From NCBI GenBank assembly GCA_963663165.1, contig OY760175.1, positions 5,600,001 to 5,664,000 on the forward strand: DNA of 64,000 nucleotides, given 5' to 3'. This DNA is from an uncultured Desulfospira sp. Lineage in GTDB: Bacteria > Desulfobacterota > Desulfobacteria > Desulfobacterales > Desulfobacteraceae. Made by a program: the position numbers and the translations under genes. Under the pieces are notes generated by a model, which worked only from the letters and a program-made list of their open reading frames with translations, did not search any database and was not told the origin of the DNA. Below are positions 1-11,830 of this stretch, piece by piece (the first letter of the stretch is position 1; the number at the start of each line of letters is the position of its first letter).

Positions 1-596
1 AAAGCGGCGGACCATGATTTTAAACCCGATTCCCTTTTGAAACTTTTCGGTATCAACATACCTGCTCTGGATGAAAATTATATGTACATCACTGAAAGCA
101 ACATCACCTCTGATTTCATGATTGATGCGCTGGAATCACTCTGGCCTTCTTTGAACGCAAGATTCGCCCCACATACACTGGTGATCAATCTTGATAATGG
201 GCCGGAAAATAGTAGCCGAAGGAGCCAATTCATTAGTCGCCTCGTGGACTTTGCCAAATCAGCATTTGTAAATATTAGTTTGGTGTACTATCCCCCGTAC
301 CACAGTAAATACAACCCAATAGAGCGAGTTTGGGGTGTTTTGGAAAATCATTGGAAAGGCGAATTGCTGAACAAAATTGAAAAGGTTCTCGGTCTATGTC
401 GAACAATGACATGGAAAGGAGAAAATCCTGTCGTCAAATTAATCAAAGGTGTTTACCCGACAGGGGTACGTTTGGTCAAGTCCGCCGTGAATAATATAGA
501 AAACAAAATTATTCGGATTCCAGGGATTGAAAAATGGGCTGTTGATATTCCATGCTATGAGGAATGAATTGTGGGTTTTGATTTTACCACATCCCT
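1..596 (+). mobile_element. 3' part of an ISAzo13-type IS (left part outside the window); right end approximate
   Basis: Transposase C-terminus runs to 567; the minus-strand DUF1566-like frame breaks at about 596 (...catccct|taa). Confidence 0.6.
37..567 (+). CDS. ISAzo13-family DDE transposase, C-terminal part (frame open from the window start)
   Basis: Motifs INLDNGPENS and YYPPYHSKYNPIERVWG; upstream in-frame DHDF. Confidence 0.85.
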   Translation: MKLFGINIPALDENYMYITESNITSDFMIDALESLWPSLNARFAPHTLVINLDNGPENSSRRSQFISRLVDFAKSAFVNISLVYYPPYHSKYNPIERVWGVLENHWKGELLNKIEKVLGLCRTMTWKGENPVVKLIKGVYPTGVRLVKSAVNNIENKIIRIPGIEKWAVDIPCYEE

Positions 597-3054: not shown

Positions 3055-3426
3055 TCATAGCTTTTTTACGTTTATGGTTTTATCGCATATCACTCCAATT
3101 AGTGATGTTATTAATCCCAGAACAAGACTACCGCCAATTGCGTATAGCGGAATAAAAATAAATATAAGGCCAGCTGTAGATGAACCAGTTTTAGTTGCCC
3201 ACCAATCAAAAAACCATGCGAAATGACTAAAAAAGACTATGATGGTCGCACCTGTAGCGAATCCAATACCCCCCAATTTATTGGCATAGCTTTTGCTTTT
3301 AAAGCTACTCTTCAATACTATATATCCAAGAACAAGAGGGACCATATTCCAAAAAGCAAAAGGGTTAATTGGTATTCCCTCCAAAATATATACAGAAACA
3401 CAAAGAATGATGAAAACTATTGTCAA
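3055..3426 (-). CDS. Cassette membrane protein (about 4 TM segments), hypothetical
   Basis: Hydrophobic ORF filling the space between attC2 and attC1. Confidence 0.75.
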   Translation of the reverse strand: MTIVFIILCVSVYILEGIPINPFAFWNMVPLVLGYIVLKSSFKSKSYANKLGGIGFATGATIIVFFSHFAWFFDWWATKTGSSTAGLIFIFIPLYAIGGSLVLGLITSLIGVICDKTINVKKL

Positions 3427-3481
3427 TAAATTTCCTTTTTTCCCATTGTATGTTTAATGATATCCATGGTCGATTTTAACA

Positions 3482-3612
3482 TGCTAACGGGGAGCTCAGC
3501 CGCCCGGGGAACGAAAACCAAGCACTTGCCTGAAGTTAAATTTGTTTCAAAAACCGCGGGCTTTTGAAAAGCCGCTAACCTCCCCGGGGCGGGCTGCAGC
3601 GTTTTGTTCTGA
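3482..3612 (-). repeat. attC site 2 (family A)
   Basis: tgctaac...gttctga; R'' is complementary to tcagaac at 8780, so it belongs to the 7949-8773 cassette. Confidence 0.9.
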
Positions 3613-3758
3613 TCTATTTTTGAGAATGGTCACAAAAAATCATGGAAAAATTGAAGATAATTTGCAAGATATGTCAGGTTTGAGGCAGAAGTTCCCCTGT
3701 TTATCTCGCAAATAATCGTGAAACTCCTGCCTCCCCACCCAATAACAGGGCAGGAGAT

Positions 3759-4346
3759 ATGCTATCAGAAGTTCTGAAAAACGAAAGTTTTTTTTGGGAT
3801 CTATACAAAATAGATCTGGCAACAGCCGAACGTTATAGACAGATGAAGTGCCCCCACTGCCAGGGACCGTTGTATTATGCCAATTATCCGCGCAAACCCA
3901 GGGGGGAGCCTGAAGGGTTGTCTGAAGAATGTTTTTTACAATTCAGTTTATGTTGCGGAAGGGAAGGCTGTCGACGTCGTTTGATCCCGCCAACCTGCCG
4001 TTTCCTTGGTAAAAACATTTACTGGTATGCGGCCATTCTGACGATTGTGTCCGACTGGCAGAACCAATCTGTAGGTATCACGATGTCCAGGTTTGCTGAA
4101 ACAATCGGTATCTCCCGCAACACCCTTAGCCGCTGGGTCAGCTTATTCAAAGAAATATTTCCAACAAGCTCTCAATGGAAGAAAATCCGGGGCCGAGTAC
4201 CTGCAAGCGTAAAAAATGATCGTCTTCCAGCAAGTTTGGTCAACTTCTATCTGCATCAACAGGCGTCCATCAAAAAAACGTTGATCTCCTGTTTGTCATT
4301 CTTGTCTCAAGGCAGTGAAATATCACAAAAAATAAGGGCCGGGTAA
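3759..4346 (+). CDS. Transposon accessory protein, Cys-rich zinc ribbon plus HTH
   Basis: CPHC...CC..EGC cysteines; HTH-like FAETIGISRNTLSRW; RBS caggag. Confidence 0.8.
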   Translation: MLSEVLKNESFFWDLYKIDLATAERYRQMKCPHCQGPLYYANYPRKPRGEPEGLSEECFLQFSLCCGREGCRRRLIPPTCRFLGKNIYWYAAILTIVSDWQNQSVGITMSRFAETIGISRNTLSRWVSLFKEIFPTSSQWKKIRGRVPASVKNDRLPASLVNFYLHQQASIKKTLISCLSFLSQGSEISQKIRAG

Positions 4347-4461
4347 TCTCACGCAGAAGATGGGCGTGGCCTTGGGCGCTCAACTGTTCTATCAAAGGGG
4401 CCGGGATTTTTATCAGCATTTCGCTGAAAATTTTAACTCAAAATTGAAAGGACCCCGGCCT

Positions 4462-5907
4462 ATGAACAGTAAAAACCAAAGTCCGGTTGATAACTGGGCT
4501 TTGTTTCGCTTCTCAGTCGTTGGCGGTTTGCTGGCAAATCCGCCGGCCAAAGGTGAGCTGCGCAAGGAACTGGAAAAGCTTTCCTATCAGATTTACACCC
4601 ATCCCATCACGAACGAATCAACGGTATTTCATTTTTCAACTATTGAAAGCTGGTATTACAAGGCAAAAAATGCCCAGGACCCCATTATTGCTTTAGGGCG
4701 GAAAGTTCGTTCTGACTATGGCGGTTCAATTGTATTCACACCTGAACTGATCCGGATGCTGGGCAGACAATACCGGACTTATCCGAACTGGAGCTACAAA
4801 CTGCACGCAGATAATTTCGCAGCAGAACTCCAGGAAAAGGAGGCTTCAGTATCGGTACCATCCTATGCCAGTGTCCGGCGGCGGATGATCGAAAGGGGGT
4901 GGACCAGGAAGCCCTCAGCAAAGAAAAAACAGACAGCGGGTATGAAAATTGCCGCAAAGCGGTTCGAAAGCCATGAAATCCGAGGATACGAAGCAGAATA
5001 TGTTCACAGCCTGTGGCATCTGGATTTTCATGAAGGCAGTCTGCGGGTGGTGGATAACAACGGTAACTGGTATACGCCCAAAGCCTTATGTATTCTTGAC
5101 GACCATTCCCGCCTGTGCTGCCACATCCAATGGTATTCAGGAGAAACCACCCAGGATTTGATTCATGGATTGACCCAGGCATTTTTCAAAAGGGGGCTTC
5201 CCAGGGCACTGATGACGGACAACGGATCTGCCATGACCTCCCATGAGTTTTGCAACGGTCTTAAAAAAACAGGGATACTTCATGAAACGACACTGCCCTA
5301 CAGCCCTTATCAAAACGGTAAGCAGGAAGCCTTTTGGGGAACCCTTGAAGGCAGATTGATGGCCATGCTGACCCGGGTGGACCCTCTGACACTGGAATAT
5401 CTCAATCACAGCAGTCAGGCCTGGGTCGAGATGGAATATAACAAAACCAGGCATAGTGACATCGGCACATCTCCTGTTCAACGCATGCTTGAAGGCAAAG
5501 ATGTTTCCCGGCCGGCACCGGATGAAGAGCAACTGAGGTTCGCCTTTACAGTCTGCGAATCCAGAAATCAGCGAAAATCTGACGGTACCGTGTCCATCAA
5601 CGGGGTAAGATTTGAGATCCCTTCCCGGTTTCACCATATCCCTCGGTTACATGTCTGCTTTGCCAATTGGGATAAATCCATGGCCTGGCTCATGGACCAG
5701 AGAACCGGCAAACAGATTGCGCAGATCTACCCCCAGGACAAAATCAAAAATGCTTCAGGAAAACGAAAGATCAAGTCGAGACCTGAGCATACCATTCTAC
5801 CGGATGAAACATTGAAAGAATCCGAGCCTGCATTATTAAGAAAACTGATGGCCGAGTATGCCCAAAGCGGCATGCCTCCAGCCTATCTTCCCAAAGGAGA
5901 ATCATGA
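4462..5907 (+). CDS. DDE (rve/Mu-like) transposase
   Basis: LWHLDF, MTDNG, NGKQEAF triad; Mu-like C-terminal DGTVSINGVRFEIP; start ATG 4462 after gaaagga. Confidence 0.9.
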   Translation: MNSKNQSPVDNWALFRFSVVGGLLANPPAKGELRKELEKLSYQIYTHPITNESTVFHFSTIESWYYKAKNAQDPIIALGRKVRSDYGGSIVFTPELIRMLGRQYRTYPNWSYKLHADNFAAELQEKEASVSVPSYASVRRRMIERGWTRKPSAKKKQTAGMKIAAKRFESHEIRGYEAEYVHSLWHLDFHEGSLRVVDNNGNWYTPKALCILDDHSRLCCHIQWYSGETTQDLIHGLTQAFFKRGLPRALMTDNGSAMTSHEFCNGLKKTGILHETTLPYSPYQNGKQEAFWGTLEGRLMAMLTRVDPLTLEYLNHSSQAWVEMEYNKTRHSDIGTSPVQRMLEGKDVSRPAPDEEQLRFAFTVCESRNQRKSDGTVSINGVRFEIPSRFHHIPRLHVCFANWDKSMAWLMDQRTGKQIAQIYPQDKIKNASGKRKIKSRPEHTILPDETLKESEPALLRKLMAEYAQSGMPPAYLPKGES

Positions 5908-6731
5908 ACAACAAACAGCTTCTGGCTTATTACGGCCTTAAATGGAACCCTTTTTTTCCTAATATCCCCGTGGAAGCCTTATGGCATCCGCCATTGATGA
6001 ACAGTTTTATTTTTCGTCTTGAGAATATGACCCTGAACGGGGGCTTTGCTTTGATCAGCGGGGACCCCGGCCTTGGCAAATCCAAGGCGTTGCAGATGAT
6101 TGCCCAAAAGTTCGGTAAACTTGACGAGGTAGTTGTCGGGGTAATGGAACGTCCCCAAAGCAGTGTCGGAGACTTTTACCGGGAAATGGGAGTTTTGTTT
6201 GGTGTCAATTTGAGCCCTGCCAACCGGTACGGCGGGTTCAAGGATCTTCGGGAGCGCTGGAAAAGTCATGTAAAAACCACCTTGTTCCGGCCCATCCTGC
6301 TCATAGATGAGGCCCAGGAGATGCTGACCGGATGCTTAAATGAACTGCGTTTGTTGAACAGCGCGGACTTTGACTCCCAAAACCTGTTGACCACCGTGAT
6401 TTGCGGCGATGACCGGCTCCCGGAACGGTTCAGATCAAGATCCCTGGTATCGCTGGGAAGCCGGATGCAGTTCCGGCTGACGCTGCTTCCCTATGTCCGG
6501 GATGACCTGCTGGATTACATGGATCACAGCCTGAACCAGGCCGGCGCCCCGCACTTAATGACGAAAACTCTGATCAGGACCCTTGCAGACCATTGCGCCG
6601 GCAACCTGCGGGTTCTTAACAATATGGCCGCAGACCTGCTGACTGCGGGGATTGAAAAAGAACTCAATCAATTGGACGAAAAGCTTTTTATGGAAGTCTA
6701 TTCCAGACAGCCGCCCAATAAAAAATCATAG
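5904..6731 (+). CDS. ExeA-like AAA+ ATPase (transposition helper)
   Basis: YGLKWNPF N-terminus, Walker A GDPGLGKS, Walker B LLIDEA; ATGA overlap with the transposase. Confidence 0.9.
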   Translation: MNNKQLLAYYGLKWNPFFPNIPVEALWHPPLMNSFIFRLENMTLNGGFALISGDPGLGKSKALQMIAQKFGKLDEVVVGVMERPQSSVGDFYREMGVLFGVNLSPANRYGGFKDLRERWKSHVKTTLFRPILLIDEAQEMLTGCLNELRLLNSADFDSQNLLTTVICGDDRLPERFRSRSLVSLGSRMQFRLTLLPYVRDDLLDYMDHSLNQAGAPHLMTKTLIRTLADHCAGNLRVLNNMAADLLTAGIEKELNQLDEKLFMEVYSRQPPNKKS

Positions 6732-6740
6732 GAGAACAAT

Positions 6741-6923
6741 ATGGGTATTTATGATGATCCGGACATGAAACTGGAAGAAATCACACAGGAATTGGAACAT
6801 TTTATCCTGGATATGGTCCTTGCCGGACTTGAAAGCTTGAATATGGAATATCGGGCCTTCAGGCGATTCCAGAAACAAAGGCTCACGGAAAAGAACCGTC
6901 ATAAAGAACACGAGCCGTTTTGA
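6741..6923 (+). CDS. 60-aa hypothetical protein
   Basis: Strong RBS aggaga; lies in the operon between the ATPase and the primase. Confidence 0.6.
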   Translation: MGIYDDPDMKLEEITQELEHFILDMVLAGLESLNMEYRAFRRFQKQRLTEKNRHKEHEPF

Positions 6924-6960
6924 ACGTACGCCCGGACTCCAAAGGTCCGGGCCTGCCTCA

Positions 6961-7749
6961 ATGGAAAAAATACTTTGGAAAATCGGCAATTATTTTAAGC
7001 ACCGCTTCAGCCTGGCAGTTCTTGATGAAATTAAGGGCCGGTGGCCCGTTCTCCCCTCTTGTAAAAACATCCCTTATCTTAAAGCTGAAAATGCCGGAGG
7101 AAGGCACATCCTGATCAGACCTGATCCTGTTATTCAGCCTTATTATTTTCTTGCCGACGATTTAAACATTGACCTGCTTATCCGGCATCATCAATCCATA
7201 TCAAACCGCTTTAAACCAGGCAGGATGGTTATAGAAACATCTCCCGGCAATTATCAAATTTGGATTCACAGTGACCGTCCGTTAAGCCTTCCCGAAAAAA
7301 AGTATTGGTTGGAAAACATGCACAGTGATCCCGGCGCCGACCCGAAAAACAGGTGGGGCAGATGCCCCGGGTTCAGGAACAGAAAAGCAAAACACAGAAC
7401 GCCTTCAGGACAATACCCTTTGGCAAAGCTATTATGGGTGGACTGGAAATGCCAGGCTATTGTCCCTGAAATAGAATTATCCTCCCAACCTCAAGAAGTC
7501 TTTTCCCATCAACCCCGGGGGGGAGTGTGCCATAACGGTAATATTTCCCGCTCCCTCTATGATAAGGGTGACGAATCTGCCACTGATTTTGCATATGCTC
7601 TGGCCCTCTATAGAAGAGGTTTCTCACGAATGGAAATTTACAATCGCATTATCAATGAAAGGCAGGATTGGATTAATCATGCGGGTGAACGAAAAAAAAC
7701 ACAGTATCTGATCAGGACATTACAGAAAGCTGAAAAAATTATCAGTTAA
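6961..7749 (+). CDS. RepB-type (AEP superfamily) DNA primase with C-terminal helical domain
   Basis: FLADD, VIETSPGNYQIW, DPGA, GRCPGFRNRK, C-terminal DESATDFAYALAL. Confidence 0.8.
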   Translation: MEKILWKIGNYFKHRFSLAVLDEIKGRWPVLPSCKNIPYLKAENAGGRHILIRPDPVIQPYYFLADDLNIDLLIRHHQSISNRFKPGRMVIETSPGNYQIWIHSDRPLSLPEKKYWLENMHSDPGADPKNRWGRCPGFRNRKAKHRTPSGQYPLAKLLWVDWKCQAIVPEIELSSQPQEVFSHQPRGGVCHNGNISRSLYDKGDESATDFAYALALYRRGFSRMEIYNRIINERQDWINHAGERKKTQYLIRTLQKAEKIIS

Positions 7750-7948
7750 AATCGGGCTCTCTTGGCCTCCGGGAAAGCCCTTATTTACCATGAAACGTTG
7801 TCCATGAATTATCGTGATTGCTCTCATTTTCACCTGGGATGCTTAACAGGATTTACCCTGAGTAGGAGGTCTCGGCTCATAAAGCCGAAACCTCCGACAG
7901 CACCTCGCCCCCCACCTTAAAAGATAGGGTCCAGGGAGTTGCCTCTGA

Positions 7949-8773
7949 TTATTCCCTCCTTAAGAAATCTGGTTGGGATTGTGCGTTCATCATCTTTCTC
8001 ATTGTTTTCCCTTCACAGATTTCAAATAAATCATTTCTCCATTCTATACATTTTAAATCCACATTATTATCAAGTTGTGTTCCAAGGTAATATCGGATTT
8101 TATCTATAATTATACCAAATGTAATAGCCGACGAACCCGGCTTACGATAAACGCCAACTAATTGAGGTGCCCCTCCACAAGCTATGTCTTTGATATTAAA
8201 CAAAGTGTCACAAAAACAATGAAATACGCTACGGCTCGTCCCTTTATCTGGCCCCTCATTATAACGCTTATAATTATCGCGAAATTCATTAGCACCTGAA
8301 CCAAGAACAAAAAGTATATCAGAGTTCTCTGGCATTTTTATCTCTTTTCCTGACCATCCTTTTGATCGGGACCATTCTATAAGCCGACATTCAAATTTTA
8401 AATTATCTTCCAGATCTCTTGAAATGTGGATAATCTGAAATACATCTGAGACTATACCTCTCACCATTTTAGGATATTTATCAAATTGATGGACTAACTT
8501 TTCTTTGATTAATTCGAATCGTTCTTTACACGATGCATTTTCAGGAAAAAATAAACCTCGATCAGTCATTTCCGTGACTTGTGAAAGTACCATCATAGGA
8601 AAAAGTACATCCCCACAATATCCGAGAATATCTGGAGAATGTTGTAAGGCAAATACTTTTCTTCCATGATCATAATTTGCAGCATGGCCCCAACTTACAC
8701 GACTATCTGCAGCAATATATGCGGATGCTGTCCCGTGTGTATCAACTCCTATCCAAGAAACAAGTAGTGTCAT
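7949..8773 (-). CDS. Cassette protein, putative Ntn-hydrolase/proteasome-beta-like fold
   Basis: M-T N-terminus, IAADSR, LGSGA and CGG motifs. Confidence 0.6.
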   Translation of the reverse strand: MTLLVSWIGVDTHGTASAYIAADSRVSWGHAANYDHGRKVFALQHSPDILGYCGDVLFPMMVLSQVTEMTDRGLFFPENASCKERFELIKEKLVHQFDKYPKMVRGIVSDVFQIIHISRDLEDNLKFECRLIEWSRSKGWSGKEIKMPENSDILFVLGSGANEFRDNYKRYNEGPDKGTSRSVFHCFCDTLFNIKDIACGGAPQLVGVYRKPGSSAITFGIIIDKIRYYLGTQLDNNVDLKCIEWRNDLFEICEGKTMRKMMNAQSQPDFLRRE

Positions 8774-10378: not shown

Positions 10379-10608
10379 TCCGTTTCAGAAATTTTGTACA
10401 ACTTGTCAAGCACCCGACACCGCATCCTTAACCAACCAAGTATCAGTTAGAACATGATTTTTTATTGGTCGATCGAGTCACCTAAATCTGTCAAAGTTTG
10501 CCATGTCTGATGGTACTACTTTAAGCATATTTTAAATTTGGAATCAAAGTCCTTTTTTCTTTTATAATCCGATTTAGTTTGGGCGATATTCTTCCGTTTG
10601 TTTTTTGA

Positions 10609-10738
10609 AGATAACGGGGAGCTGAGGGGCCAGGCTTTTAAACCCAAAAAGCTCCGATAAAAGTTTAAATTTTCCTGAACCAGGCACTTCCGAAAAGCCG
10701 CTCTGTAAGCCTGGTCCCTCTCCAGCGTTTTGTTGTGC
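10609..10738 (-). repeat. attC site 6 (family B)
   Basis: agataac...gttgtgc. Confidence 0.9.
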
Positions 10739-10745
10739 AATATTT

Positions 10746-11408: not shown

Positions 11409-11594
11409 GTTGTAGTGAATTCCTCTTTTTTTATCCTCCGTCTAAGCGATGAAATGAAGTTTCCAAAACCAACTTCTCTGATCAACCGACTCGTTTTGGT
11501 CATCACTATCTGAAATTATCCAGCCCCAATATATTATGTTTGTTTTGAAAAGCCAAAATCCTTTTCATTGGAGACTATCCGTTCCCGTTTTGAA

Positions 11595-11725
11595 GCACAA
11601 CGGGGAGCTGAGGGGCCAGGCTTCTTAAACCCCAAAAGCTCCGATAAAAAGATAAATTTTCCTGAACCAGGGACTCCCGAAAGGCCGCGCAGTAAGCCTG
11701 GTCCCTCTCCAGCGTTTTGTTGTGC
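11595..11725 (-). repeat. attC site 7 (family B)
   Basis: gcacaac...gttgtgc. Confidence 0.9.
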
Positions 11726-11830
11726 AATATTCTTAAGAAAGCAGACCCTCTCTCAAAGTCGATAATTAATTTATTGTTTTATTAAATTGATTATAGCTGT
11801 CTTTGGCTGTAGCGTTTTGTTCAGTTTCTT

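Follow-up and report, generated by a model that had tools for sequence, protein, structure and literature searches.

What use could a small bacterial transposon have for a primase of its own? The question is raised by a 64,000-nucleotide stretch of DNA from an uncultured Desulfospira sp. (assembly GCA_963663165.1, contig OY760175.1, positions 5,600,001 to 5,664,000; hereafter the window), in which a recently active transposon ends with a gene for a predicted RepB'-type primase. Bacterial DDE transposons are taught as wholly host-dependent for DNA replication and repair synthesis. A sequence-only reading of the window had described the element and suggested that it might prime its own DNA synthesis. 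Here we report that the element is a variant of the Tn6049 family, that the place of its primase gene is filled in relatives by one of three unrelated replication-initiation proteins or left empty, and that primases of the same clade lie beside the transposases or recombinases of other small elements. Based on these comparisons, we favor, with a probability of roughly 55%, the reading that the element itself primes the DNA synthesis by which it is copied.

The limits of the element were established from its own genome, which consists of one 6.74-Mb contig. Using window positions 3500-7950 as the query, we identified 11 copies at 97-100% identity, all ending at the equivalents of window positions 3621 and 7826. 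The two arms of the terminal inverted repeat (TIR; 3621-3649 and 7798-7826, 29 nt, 72% complementary, TG...CA) are by themselves no stronger than chance pairs in the window, such as pair I2 (26 nt, 73%); the boundaries are proven because all genome copies share the same ends. Nine copies, including the window's own, are uninterrupted, one lies across the origin of the contig, and the last is broken up by two insertions of foreign DNA. Each of the 11 is flanked by its own direct repeat of 3-6 bp, most often 5 bp (5/11 copies): TTTT, CCGGT, ATATCC, GCA, CGATAG, ACA, TCAAA, TTAAT, ACAAAT, ATGGA and CAAAG. These target duplications have no common sequence. Because 11 near-identical copies each carry their own direct repeat, the element is a recently active transposon, and the sequence-only reading was right to delimit a discrete DDE/ATPase transposon by its TG...CA ends, 21/29 TIRs and TTTT flanks.

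When the ends of relatives were compared, the left terminus proved to be conserved across phyla, with the consensus TGAGnnTGGnCAC...ATAATCnATGG. The right end, 7778-7826, is also conserved and contains a subterminal TGATTTA/ATTATCGTG repeat; the right-end TIR and this repeat are probably transposase binding sites. The copies comprise two subfamilies that differ at 112/4206 positions, and a third form is a mosaic of both. In the mosaic copy (L006, G000:C1:3867756-3871961), all 38 differences from the window copy lie within the transposase and ATPase genes, and this pattern suggests recombination between the two subfamilies. The broken copy (G000:C1:4929062-4939243) is interrupted by insertions of ~4.06 kb and ~1.9 kb, and the second of them cuts the primase near residues 211-218. 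Although the copies are spread over both replichores, ten of the 11 have the + orientation on the contig, an absolute-strand bias.

Domain, sequence and structure searches agreed on the nature of the last gene. Its product scored 58.0 bits against the RepB_primase domain (cut-off 24.3) and 34.6 bits against RepB_primase_C, a helix bundle (cut-off 26.1), and the structure model places helices at residues 207-261. Against sequences in the PDB, it matched 3H20/3H25, the RepB' primase of plasmid RSF1010, with an E value of 4e-12. The model itself (mean predicted local distance difference test score, pLDDT, 81.8) retrieved 3H20 (E 1.7e-11) and 3H25_A (E 7.3e-10) as its top two Foldseek matches, the latter with a target template-modeling (TM) score of 0.67 and a root-mean-square deviation of 3.6 over 173 columns. 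The structural comparison of 6961-7749 with RepB_primase that the sequence-only reading had proposed thus returned RepB' itself. The motifs IETSPGNYQ and DESATDF, which it had pointed out, are both present, and the primase stop lies, as it had stated, 77 bp inside the right end of the element.

The catalytic residues are also conserved. D66, D67, D123 and R134 of the primase align to D77, D78, D134 and R145 of RepB', and a set of 14 primases with 25-79% identity to the window's shows no variation at D66, D67, E92-T93-S94, D123 and R134. According to the published account of RepB' (PMC8567376), its three aspartates are required for primer synthesis, which the R145A substitution strongly reduces. 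The same account assigns W50 and Y62 to hairpin unwinding and template positioning and reports that W50 varies between subgroups; in the window's primase these two residues align with Y39 and L51. Judged by its residues, the primase is catalytically intact. In the genome, 10 of the 11 copies hold an intact primase gene, that of the interrupted copy being split, and all 12 primase matches fall inside the 11 copies. Between the two subfamilies, the ratio of non-synonymous to synonymous polymorphism (pN/pS) of the primase gene is 0.27, a value based on only four synonymous and four non-synonymous changes. As far as these comparisons indicate, the primase gene is maintained.

To place the element, we collected relatives of its transposase by a scan of one genome per species, which yielded 130 stretches, and kept the best 78 of these 130 loci. 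The relatives span Thermodesulfobacteriota, Planctomycetota, Acidobacteriota, Spirochaetota, Actinomycetota, Myxococcota, Bacteroidota, Pseudomonadota and Cyanobacteriota, and in nearly all of them the genes for ORF1, transposase and ATPase follow one another as they do in the window. The slot after the ATPase gene varies, being occupied by a RepB'-type primase, a DnaG-type primase, an AAA_25 protein, or nothing beyond a small open reading frame (ORF). The DnaG-type protein consists of a zinc ribbon and a Toprim domain, with DnaG 2AU3 as its best PDB match (E 7e-19). The AAA_25 proteins (E 1e-31 to 1e-37) found their best PDB match in the RSF1010 RepA helicase 1G8Y (E 1e-8), and some of their genes are followed by a small ORF that holds only a primase-type (CHC2) zinc ribbon. 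At two loci (L052 9340-9681 and L053 9248-9622), we observed free-standing ORFs of 113-124 aa with a CHC2 zinc ribbon and no Toprim domain beside the RepA-like helicase. Among these relatives, the RepA-like gene replaces the RepB primase and does not accompany it.

We then constructed a transposase tree of 59 rows, which include near-identical copies from single genomes. On 16 rows the contig was too short to judge the slot. The 43 judged rows comprised 27 with AAA_25 (6 of them also with the CHC2 zinc ribbon), 7 with RepB, 2 with a DnaG-type primase and 7 with nothing. All 27 AAA_25 rows fell within one major clade, and the other clade was mixed. The sequence-only reading had made its proposal depend on homologous elements carrying the primase. 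In that narrow form the expectation failed, RepB being confined to a minority of rows (7/43); in a wider form it held, with a replication gene of some kind in 36/43. Within these rows, which cover at least seven phyla, the only functional class seen in the slot was that of replication proteins, of three non-homologous kinds. Our main argument is that the slot would serve DNA synthesis because three unrelated replication-initiation proteins, and no other kind of gene, occur there.

A direct replacement could be observed in two sister elements from one Acidobacteriota metagenome-assembled genome, L044 with RepB and L047 with a DnaG-type primase, which are joined with a support of 98 in the Shimodaira-Hasegawa-like approximate likelihood ratio test (SH-aLRT). 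Their transposases are 64% identical, and the DNA of the two is similar up to the end of the ATPase gene and no further, a pattern that we read as a direct swap of primase type in the slot. The Desulfobacteraceae clade was well supported, with five distinct RepB-bearing elements on the tree. Within the Desulfobacterales lineage, the primase follows the transposase, as the sequence-only reading had expected; across element families it does not, and the primase has been exchanged.

This exchange became apparent when we searched for the primase independently of the transposon. A total of 578 close homologues were detected at E<=0.001, and among the 120 listed, most were on contigs of 1-5 kb. A metagenome scan with the primase alignment identified 311 relatives, of which the best 80 were kept, and the gene context was assigned over 89 primase loci (80 metagenome loci, 8 genome loci and the window). 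The window's Tn6049-type family (F1) accounted for 29/89 loci and a second DDE plus AAA_22 family (F2) for 36/89. A further 12/89 were of the RIT type, in which the primase lies beside tandem tyrosine recombinases (three wherever the full set is on the contig), 4/89 lay with IS21-like genes (rve and IstB), 1/89 lay in a different gene set, and 7/89 were not assignable, with short flanks or a contig edge. In all 82 loci with an assignable context, the primase adjoins a transposase or a recombinase. Primases of this clade in other small elements are 51-81% identical, and in F1, F2 and RIT no gene follows the primase, which stops 55-77 bp short of the end of the element.

These element types differ widely in their other proteins. 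F2, represented by L109, L110 and ~34 further metagenome loci, is a compact family that combines a DDE transposase with an AAA_22 ATPase and the primase, and for which no name was found. Its core proteins share only 21-28% identity with those of the window, its transposase (426-441 aa) has a Mu C-terminal domain, and its right end (...TTTAATTTGAAATCCAACA) follows ~55-60 bp after the primase stop. On one metagenome contig (L163, 811-4770), the genes after the primase encode a ParB_N protein, an IstA-like transposase (rve and Mu-transpos_C_2) and IstB_IS21, which makes this an IS21-like element that carries both a primase and a ParB-like gene. The trio (RIT) loci hold one complete co-oriented primase each. 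We rejected the idea that they represent elements with a split primase and spare copies, there being no second or inverted primase match. No clear inverted ends of the trio elements were found. In two independent comparisons, contig-to-contig similarity stops 75 bp after the primase stop, and by this criterion the primase is inside the shared mobile unit.

Context labels were strongly clustered on a primase tree of 82 rows, changing 12 times compared with a mean of 41 after shuffling, and yet at least 7 changes among known contexts were required. One well-supported clade (SH-aLRT 99) joins trio and IS21-like elements. The primase is thus for the most part inherited with its element, but it has also been exchanged between unrelated element types.

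The rest of the element corresponds to a known transposon. On Cupriavidus metallidurans plasmids and on the Pseudomonas aeruginosa plasmid pHS87a, which also carries Tn6049, its transposase has relatives with 46.9% identity (90% of the query aligned, E 1e-132). From these matches, the four-gene core is that of the Tn6049 family of Cupriavidus, which is named but barely studied. Tn6049 is described as 3.5 kb long and present in 12 copies in strain CH34, with its ATPase called gspA (PMC2864759), and its ends as 12-bp imperfect TG...CA inverted repeats with a 4-bp direct repeat (PMC4739549). The copy on pMOL30 has the same gene order and no fifth gene (proteins of 181, 479, 277 and 71 aa) and is flanked by a 6-bp repeat. 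The two elements share the order of a small "transposase" (the ORF1 homologue), DDE transposase, AAA ATPase and small ORF, imperfect TG...CA inverted ends, short direct repeats and a multi-copy state. In contrast, Tn6049 has neither primase nor helicase, and its transposase is nearer to the helicase-bearing (AAA_25) clade (55-58% identity) than to the window's clade. Because it is 4206 bp long with a primase as fifth gene, the window's element is a Tn6049-family variant and not Tn6049 itself.

The sequence-only reading had not recognized the five-gene architecture as a described family. This does not hold for the four-gene core, which is that of Tn6049, and it does hold for the primase, whose addition we did not find in print and which is the new part of this element. 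Phrase searches of the literature, excluding supplementary files, returned no primase or helicase in Tn6049-like bacterial transposons, no "transposon-encoded primase", no recombinase trio with a primase, and no combination of AAA_25, transposase and primase. In the titles and abstract openings of the papers found to name Tn6049, no replication gene is mentioned.

The individual features are collected in Table 1. ORF1, with its zinc ribbon, is conserved in all of the family, and the protein is predicted to bind DNA. No likeness of ORF1 to TniQ or to any other known fold was detected: for its structure model (pLDDT 88.8), only generic helix-turn-helix (HTH) likeness was found, with no Foldseek match at E<=1e-3 and a best Z of 4.6, in the HTH region, in the VIA search, and a profile search of PDB sequences gave no match below E 0.39. 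Since the alignment with relatives and with Tn6049 begins only at about residues 17-46, the transposase may in fact start at Met44 (4489). It scores under the cut-offs of the IS481, IS3 and IS21 models, and best against those of IS481 and IS3; at 104.6 bits against a cut-off of 224 for NCBIfam transpos_IS481, it falls outside IS481, although this is the name that genome annotation gives to the Tn6049 transposase. We know of no IS481 element with a partner ATPase. Its best phage-family match is the transposase phrog_310 (4e-33), and the domain search detected no Mu-transpos_C domain.

The ATPase gene starts within the end of the transposase gene, overlapping its stop, and the product matches phrog_296, "DNA transposition protein" (6e-14); its best PDB sequence match is MuB 8XVB, at an E value of only 0.17. 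ORF4 is weakly conserved in sequence and has a counterpart in primase-less relatives and Tn6049. In the 8 other full copies compared with the window's own, each of the five ORFs is intact, and pN/pS values across the ORFs are 0.14-0.45. The order of Zn-finger/HTH protein, rve transposase, AAA ATPase, 60-aa ORF and AEP (archaeo-eukaryotic) primase that had been read from the sequence was borne out by domain searches, and so was the lack of other plasmid functions, no helicase, relaxase or plasmid initiator match being found among the five ORFs. The domain searches likewise found no DNA polymerase domain in any of them.

Table 1. Features of the primase-bearing transposon, by position in the window.
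Feature	Position	Strand	Basis or remarks
Transposon, 4206 bp	3621-7826		five co-oriented ORFs
Left target-site duplication, TTTT	3617..3620	no strand	flank comparison
Left TIR, 29 nt, starts TG	3621..3649	+	21/29 match with right arm; start common to all copies
ORF1, 195 aa, Zn-ribbon (CxxC...CC...C) and weak HTH	3759..4346	+	domain search; invariant C34, C65, C66, C71
DDE transposase (rve), 515 aa as listed	4360..5907	+	rve E 5.8e-13
AAA_22 ATPase, 275 aa, "gspA"/ExeA-like partner of transposase	5904..6731	+	E 4.6e-16
ORF4, 60 aa, small acidic helical protein, no family match	6741..6923	+	position conserved in relatives
Hairpin with 8-bp stem, GCCCGGAC-7 nt-GTCCGGGC	6929..6951	no strand	between ORF4 and primase; -11.8 kcal/mol, z -3.1
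RepB'-type archaeo-eukaryotic primase, 262 aa	6961..7749	+	Pfam domains, PDB match, structure model
Right end, including 29-nt right TIR (7798-7826), ends CA	7778..7826	+	right ends of F1 relatives align
Right target-site duplication, TTTT	7827..7830	no strand	flank comparison

Because related and unrelated small elements carry a primase or a helicase in the same place, we consider that Tn6049-type and other small elements probably start part of their own DNA copying. For the window's element, we propose that a Tn6049-family transposon gained a RepB'-type primase as its last gene, and that this enzyme most likely makes one or more primers for the synthesis that copies the element during its movement. 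The candidate substrate would be second- or lagging-strand synthesis on a replicative intermediate (Shapiro-type or copy-out), or a free copy of the element. In relatives, a DnaG-type primase or an RSF1010 RepA-like helicase seems to take care of the same priming step. That the window's primase works on the DNA of its own element, on which intermediate it does so and where it starts are points that we infer from such comparisons; the trio elements would favor a free copy as the substrate, and the AAA_22 partner with multi-site ends would favor a Mu-like pathway.

Priming by the element itself would lessen its dependence on the host primosome. Mu, for comparison, needs the host restart primosome for its replication, and the wide host range of RSF1010 is due to its own helicase, primase and initiator. 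By analogy with RSF1010, the element may gain a degree of host independence. According to PMC8567376, the plasmid replicates with the host machinery but cannot do without the helicase, primase and initiator that it encodes.

Several observations weigh against this reading, the first being that no cis site for the primase was found. The hairpin at 7754-7780, which the sequence-only reading had offered as a candidate priming site, folds no better than shuffled sequence (z -0.83; 40/200 shuffles fold at least as well) and is absent at the same place in primase-bearing relatives, and was rejected; this part of the self-priming proposal is not supported, while the proposal as such has gained strong comparative support from the DnaG-type primase or RepA-type helicase in the same slot. 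A stronger hairpin precedes the primase gene at 6929-6951. It lacks a T run, and Desulfobacterales relatives have covarying hairpins ahead of their primase genes. In the primase-less L019 (z -6.2) and Tn6049 (z -5.6), however, ORF4 is followed by hairpins that are just as strong, and the counterpart is missing where the primase gene abuts the ATPase gene. We therefore rejected the hairpin at 6929-6951 as a primase-specific single-strand initiation (ssi) site; it belongs to the core family and is probably terminator-like. Nor do the sequences downstream of the primase share a motif across element types, and a common cis motif 3' of the gene was likewise rejected, each tail being its element type's own end sequence.

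The distribution of the primase also speaks for a limited role. A primase-less Desulfobacter/Desulfobacula lineage of 3.54 kb is nested in the RepB clade (SH-aLRT 97 and 100), where it is sister to a RepB element (SH-aLRT 97), and it has at least 14 copies in one genome; Tn6049, without a replication gene, reaches its 12 copies in CH34 (PMC2864759). Because these primase-less elements proliferate, the primase is not indispensable: it is dispensable for proliferation at least in some hosts, and the replication module helps at most. The trees behind these statements are quick searches with SH-aLRT support only. All copies in the genome are simple insertions flanked by their own target duplications, an outcome that can arise with or without replication. 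With the minimum of the cumulative GC skew near 3.98 Mb and its maximum near 0.74 Mb, the 11 insertions are unbiased relative to the direction of replication (6 co-directional, 5 head-on). Finally, domain and repeat searches found no helicase, initiator or iterons in the window's element.

An alternative, which we consider unlikely, is that the primase starts replication of an excised or copied-out circle, which would persist briefly or be amplified before re-insertion. An element of this kind would resemble plasmids such as ColE2, whose initiator Rep is itself a primase. In favor of a free copy are the trio elements, in which the same primase clade lies inside the mobile unit: tyrosine recombinases cannot make Shapiro intermediates, so that a free copy would be the simplest common substrate. 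The best scores of the transposase were against the models of IS481 and IS3, families that are thought to use circular copy-out intermediates. However, the element has no initiator, helicase, iterons or origin-like array, and no partner that could open a duplex was found among its genes. Target-capture systems of the Mu/Tn7 type, which to our knowledge do not use circles, typically have such an AAA_22 partner and conserved multi-site ends. The element was present in 8 public runs, all as Logan contigs; comparison of 4 Logan contig runs with 3300-8150 gave no right-to-left joint, a result that is uninformative either way as contigs drop rare forms. No RNA run was among the public runs found to hold the element.

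A precedent for this alternative, and for the favored reading as well, comes from SCCmec, for whose primase-helicase pair the authors propose replication of the excised element (PMC7581432). Like the window's transposon, SCCmec is an integrative element without a plasmid replicon that carries its own primase and/or helicase (CCPol-MP and Cch/Cch2). Unlike it, SCCmec uses serine recombinases, measures tens of kb, has an A-family polymerase plus a partner as its primase, and always has a helicase.

It is still less probable that the primases and helicases are plasmid-derived cargo at the edge of the element, without a role in transposition and kept by hitch-hiking or by a host or anti-host function. 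The proliferation of the nested primase-less lineage and of Tn6049 would agree with this, as would the location of the module, which lies at the extreme edge of the element as expected of captured DNA, and the 7 or more moves between unrelated elements that the primase tree requires. Against cargo, however, stands the restriction of the slot to three non-homologous replication proteins over 43 rows and at least seven phyla. It would also have to be reconciled with the invariant active-site residues of the 14 primases, with a primase that is the sole extra gene in 4-kb elements at 11 or more copies per genome, and with the location of the primase beside a transposase or recombinase in all 82 assignable loci.

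That the primase makes no primers and instead binds single-stranded DNA or hairpins at replication forks, steering insertion or transpososome assembly, is very improbable: RepB' does recognize a specific hairpin-containing single-stranded site (PMC8567376) and ORF1, a possible target selector, has no detectable TniQ likeness, but the invariant catalytic aspartates and arginine would be needless for pure binding, and neither a replication-direction bias (6 vs 5) nor a common sequence in the target duplications was found.

The reading that the element primes its own copying can be set against several known systems. The window's primase shares with RSF1010 IncQ RepB' (PDB 3H20, 3H25) the two-domain architecture, the fold and the equivalents of D77/D78/D134/R145, at a sequence identity of only ~22-26%. 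RepB' works with the RepA helicase and the RepC initiator at ssiA and ssiB of oriV (PMC8567376), whereas the element has no RepA or RepC partner and no recognizable ssi site; with no such genes or iterons, it is not an IncQ-type replicon (RepA, RepC and an iteron origin plus RepB'). With Mu (MuA/MuB), Tn7, Tn5053, Tn552 and IS21, it shares an rve-fold transposase with an AAA-type ATPase and TG...CA ends with subterminal repeats. In Mu/Tn7/Tn5053-type elements the target duplication is fixed at 5 bp, in contrast to 3-6 bp here, and the difference from Mu extends to the Mu-transpos_C domain, which was not detected in the window's protein, and to the primase or helicase that the window's family carries itself.

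Other mobile elements also encode part of their own copying machinery, namely casposons, Polintons and pipolins. These have a DNA polymerase B and a Cas1 or retroviral-type integrase, whereas the window's element has a primase only and no polymerase. The IEE PrimPol-helicase likewise ties an archaeo-eukaryotic primase to copy-out-paste-in DDE insertion sequences (bioRxiv 10.1101/2023.06.07.543989). As that preprint presents it, IEE differs in being encoded outside the insertion sequences, promoting their excision and being fused to a helicase. Among the systems compared, the RIT elements hold a primase of the same clade beside tandem tyrosine recombinases (12 loci), and inside the shared mobile unit in the two comparisons made; they differ in their recombination chemistry.

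The region around the element is rich in mobile elements. At the edge of the window (1-567) lies a fragment of an ISAzo13-type (DDE_Tnp_ISAZ013) transposase, and an IS66-family transposase occupies 1094-2551 on the minus strand. Immediately to the left of the element, 3488-3620 holds a repeat of ~110-120 bp with an internal palindrome, which has at least 20 partial copies in the genome (77-87% identity), clustered near 1.88-1.92, 4.19 and 5.56-5.61 Mb. Similar sequence apparently occurs again at ~10516-10740 and ~11568-11765 of the window, with near-identical spurious ORFs, and the repeat looks like a family of the repetitive extragenic palindrome (REP) or miniature inverted-repeat transposable element (MITE) type. 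To the right, a 274-aa ORF at 7949-8773 on the minus strand has no Pfam or NCBIfam match.

The transposon of the window thus belongs to a compact and highly active family in which one of three unrelated replication-initiation proteins is repeatedly found in one slot, and its RepB'-type primase module is common to mechanistically unrelated small elements. As a tentative generalization, in which we place somewhat less than even confidence, an element-encoded start of DNA synthesis may be a step of transposition in many bacteria, and the Tn6049-family, F2, IS21-like and trio elements may form a broad, undescribed class of "self-priming" small elements. If so, a module consisting of a primase or a RepA-type helicase, at or near one end, would be exchanged among such elements, would free them from the host primosome and would help explain their spread over at least seven phyla. 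If the primase acts on the DNA of the element, it would represent a new accessory function for prokaryotic transposons, provide a handle on the transposition pathway of the Tn6049 family, and make small, self-contained, site-specific primases and helicases available for study.

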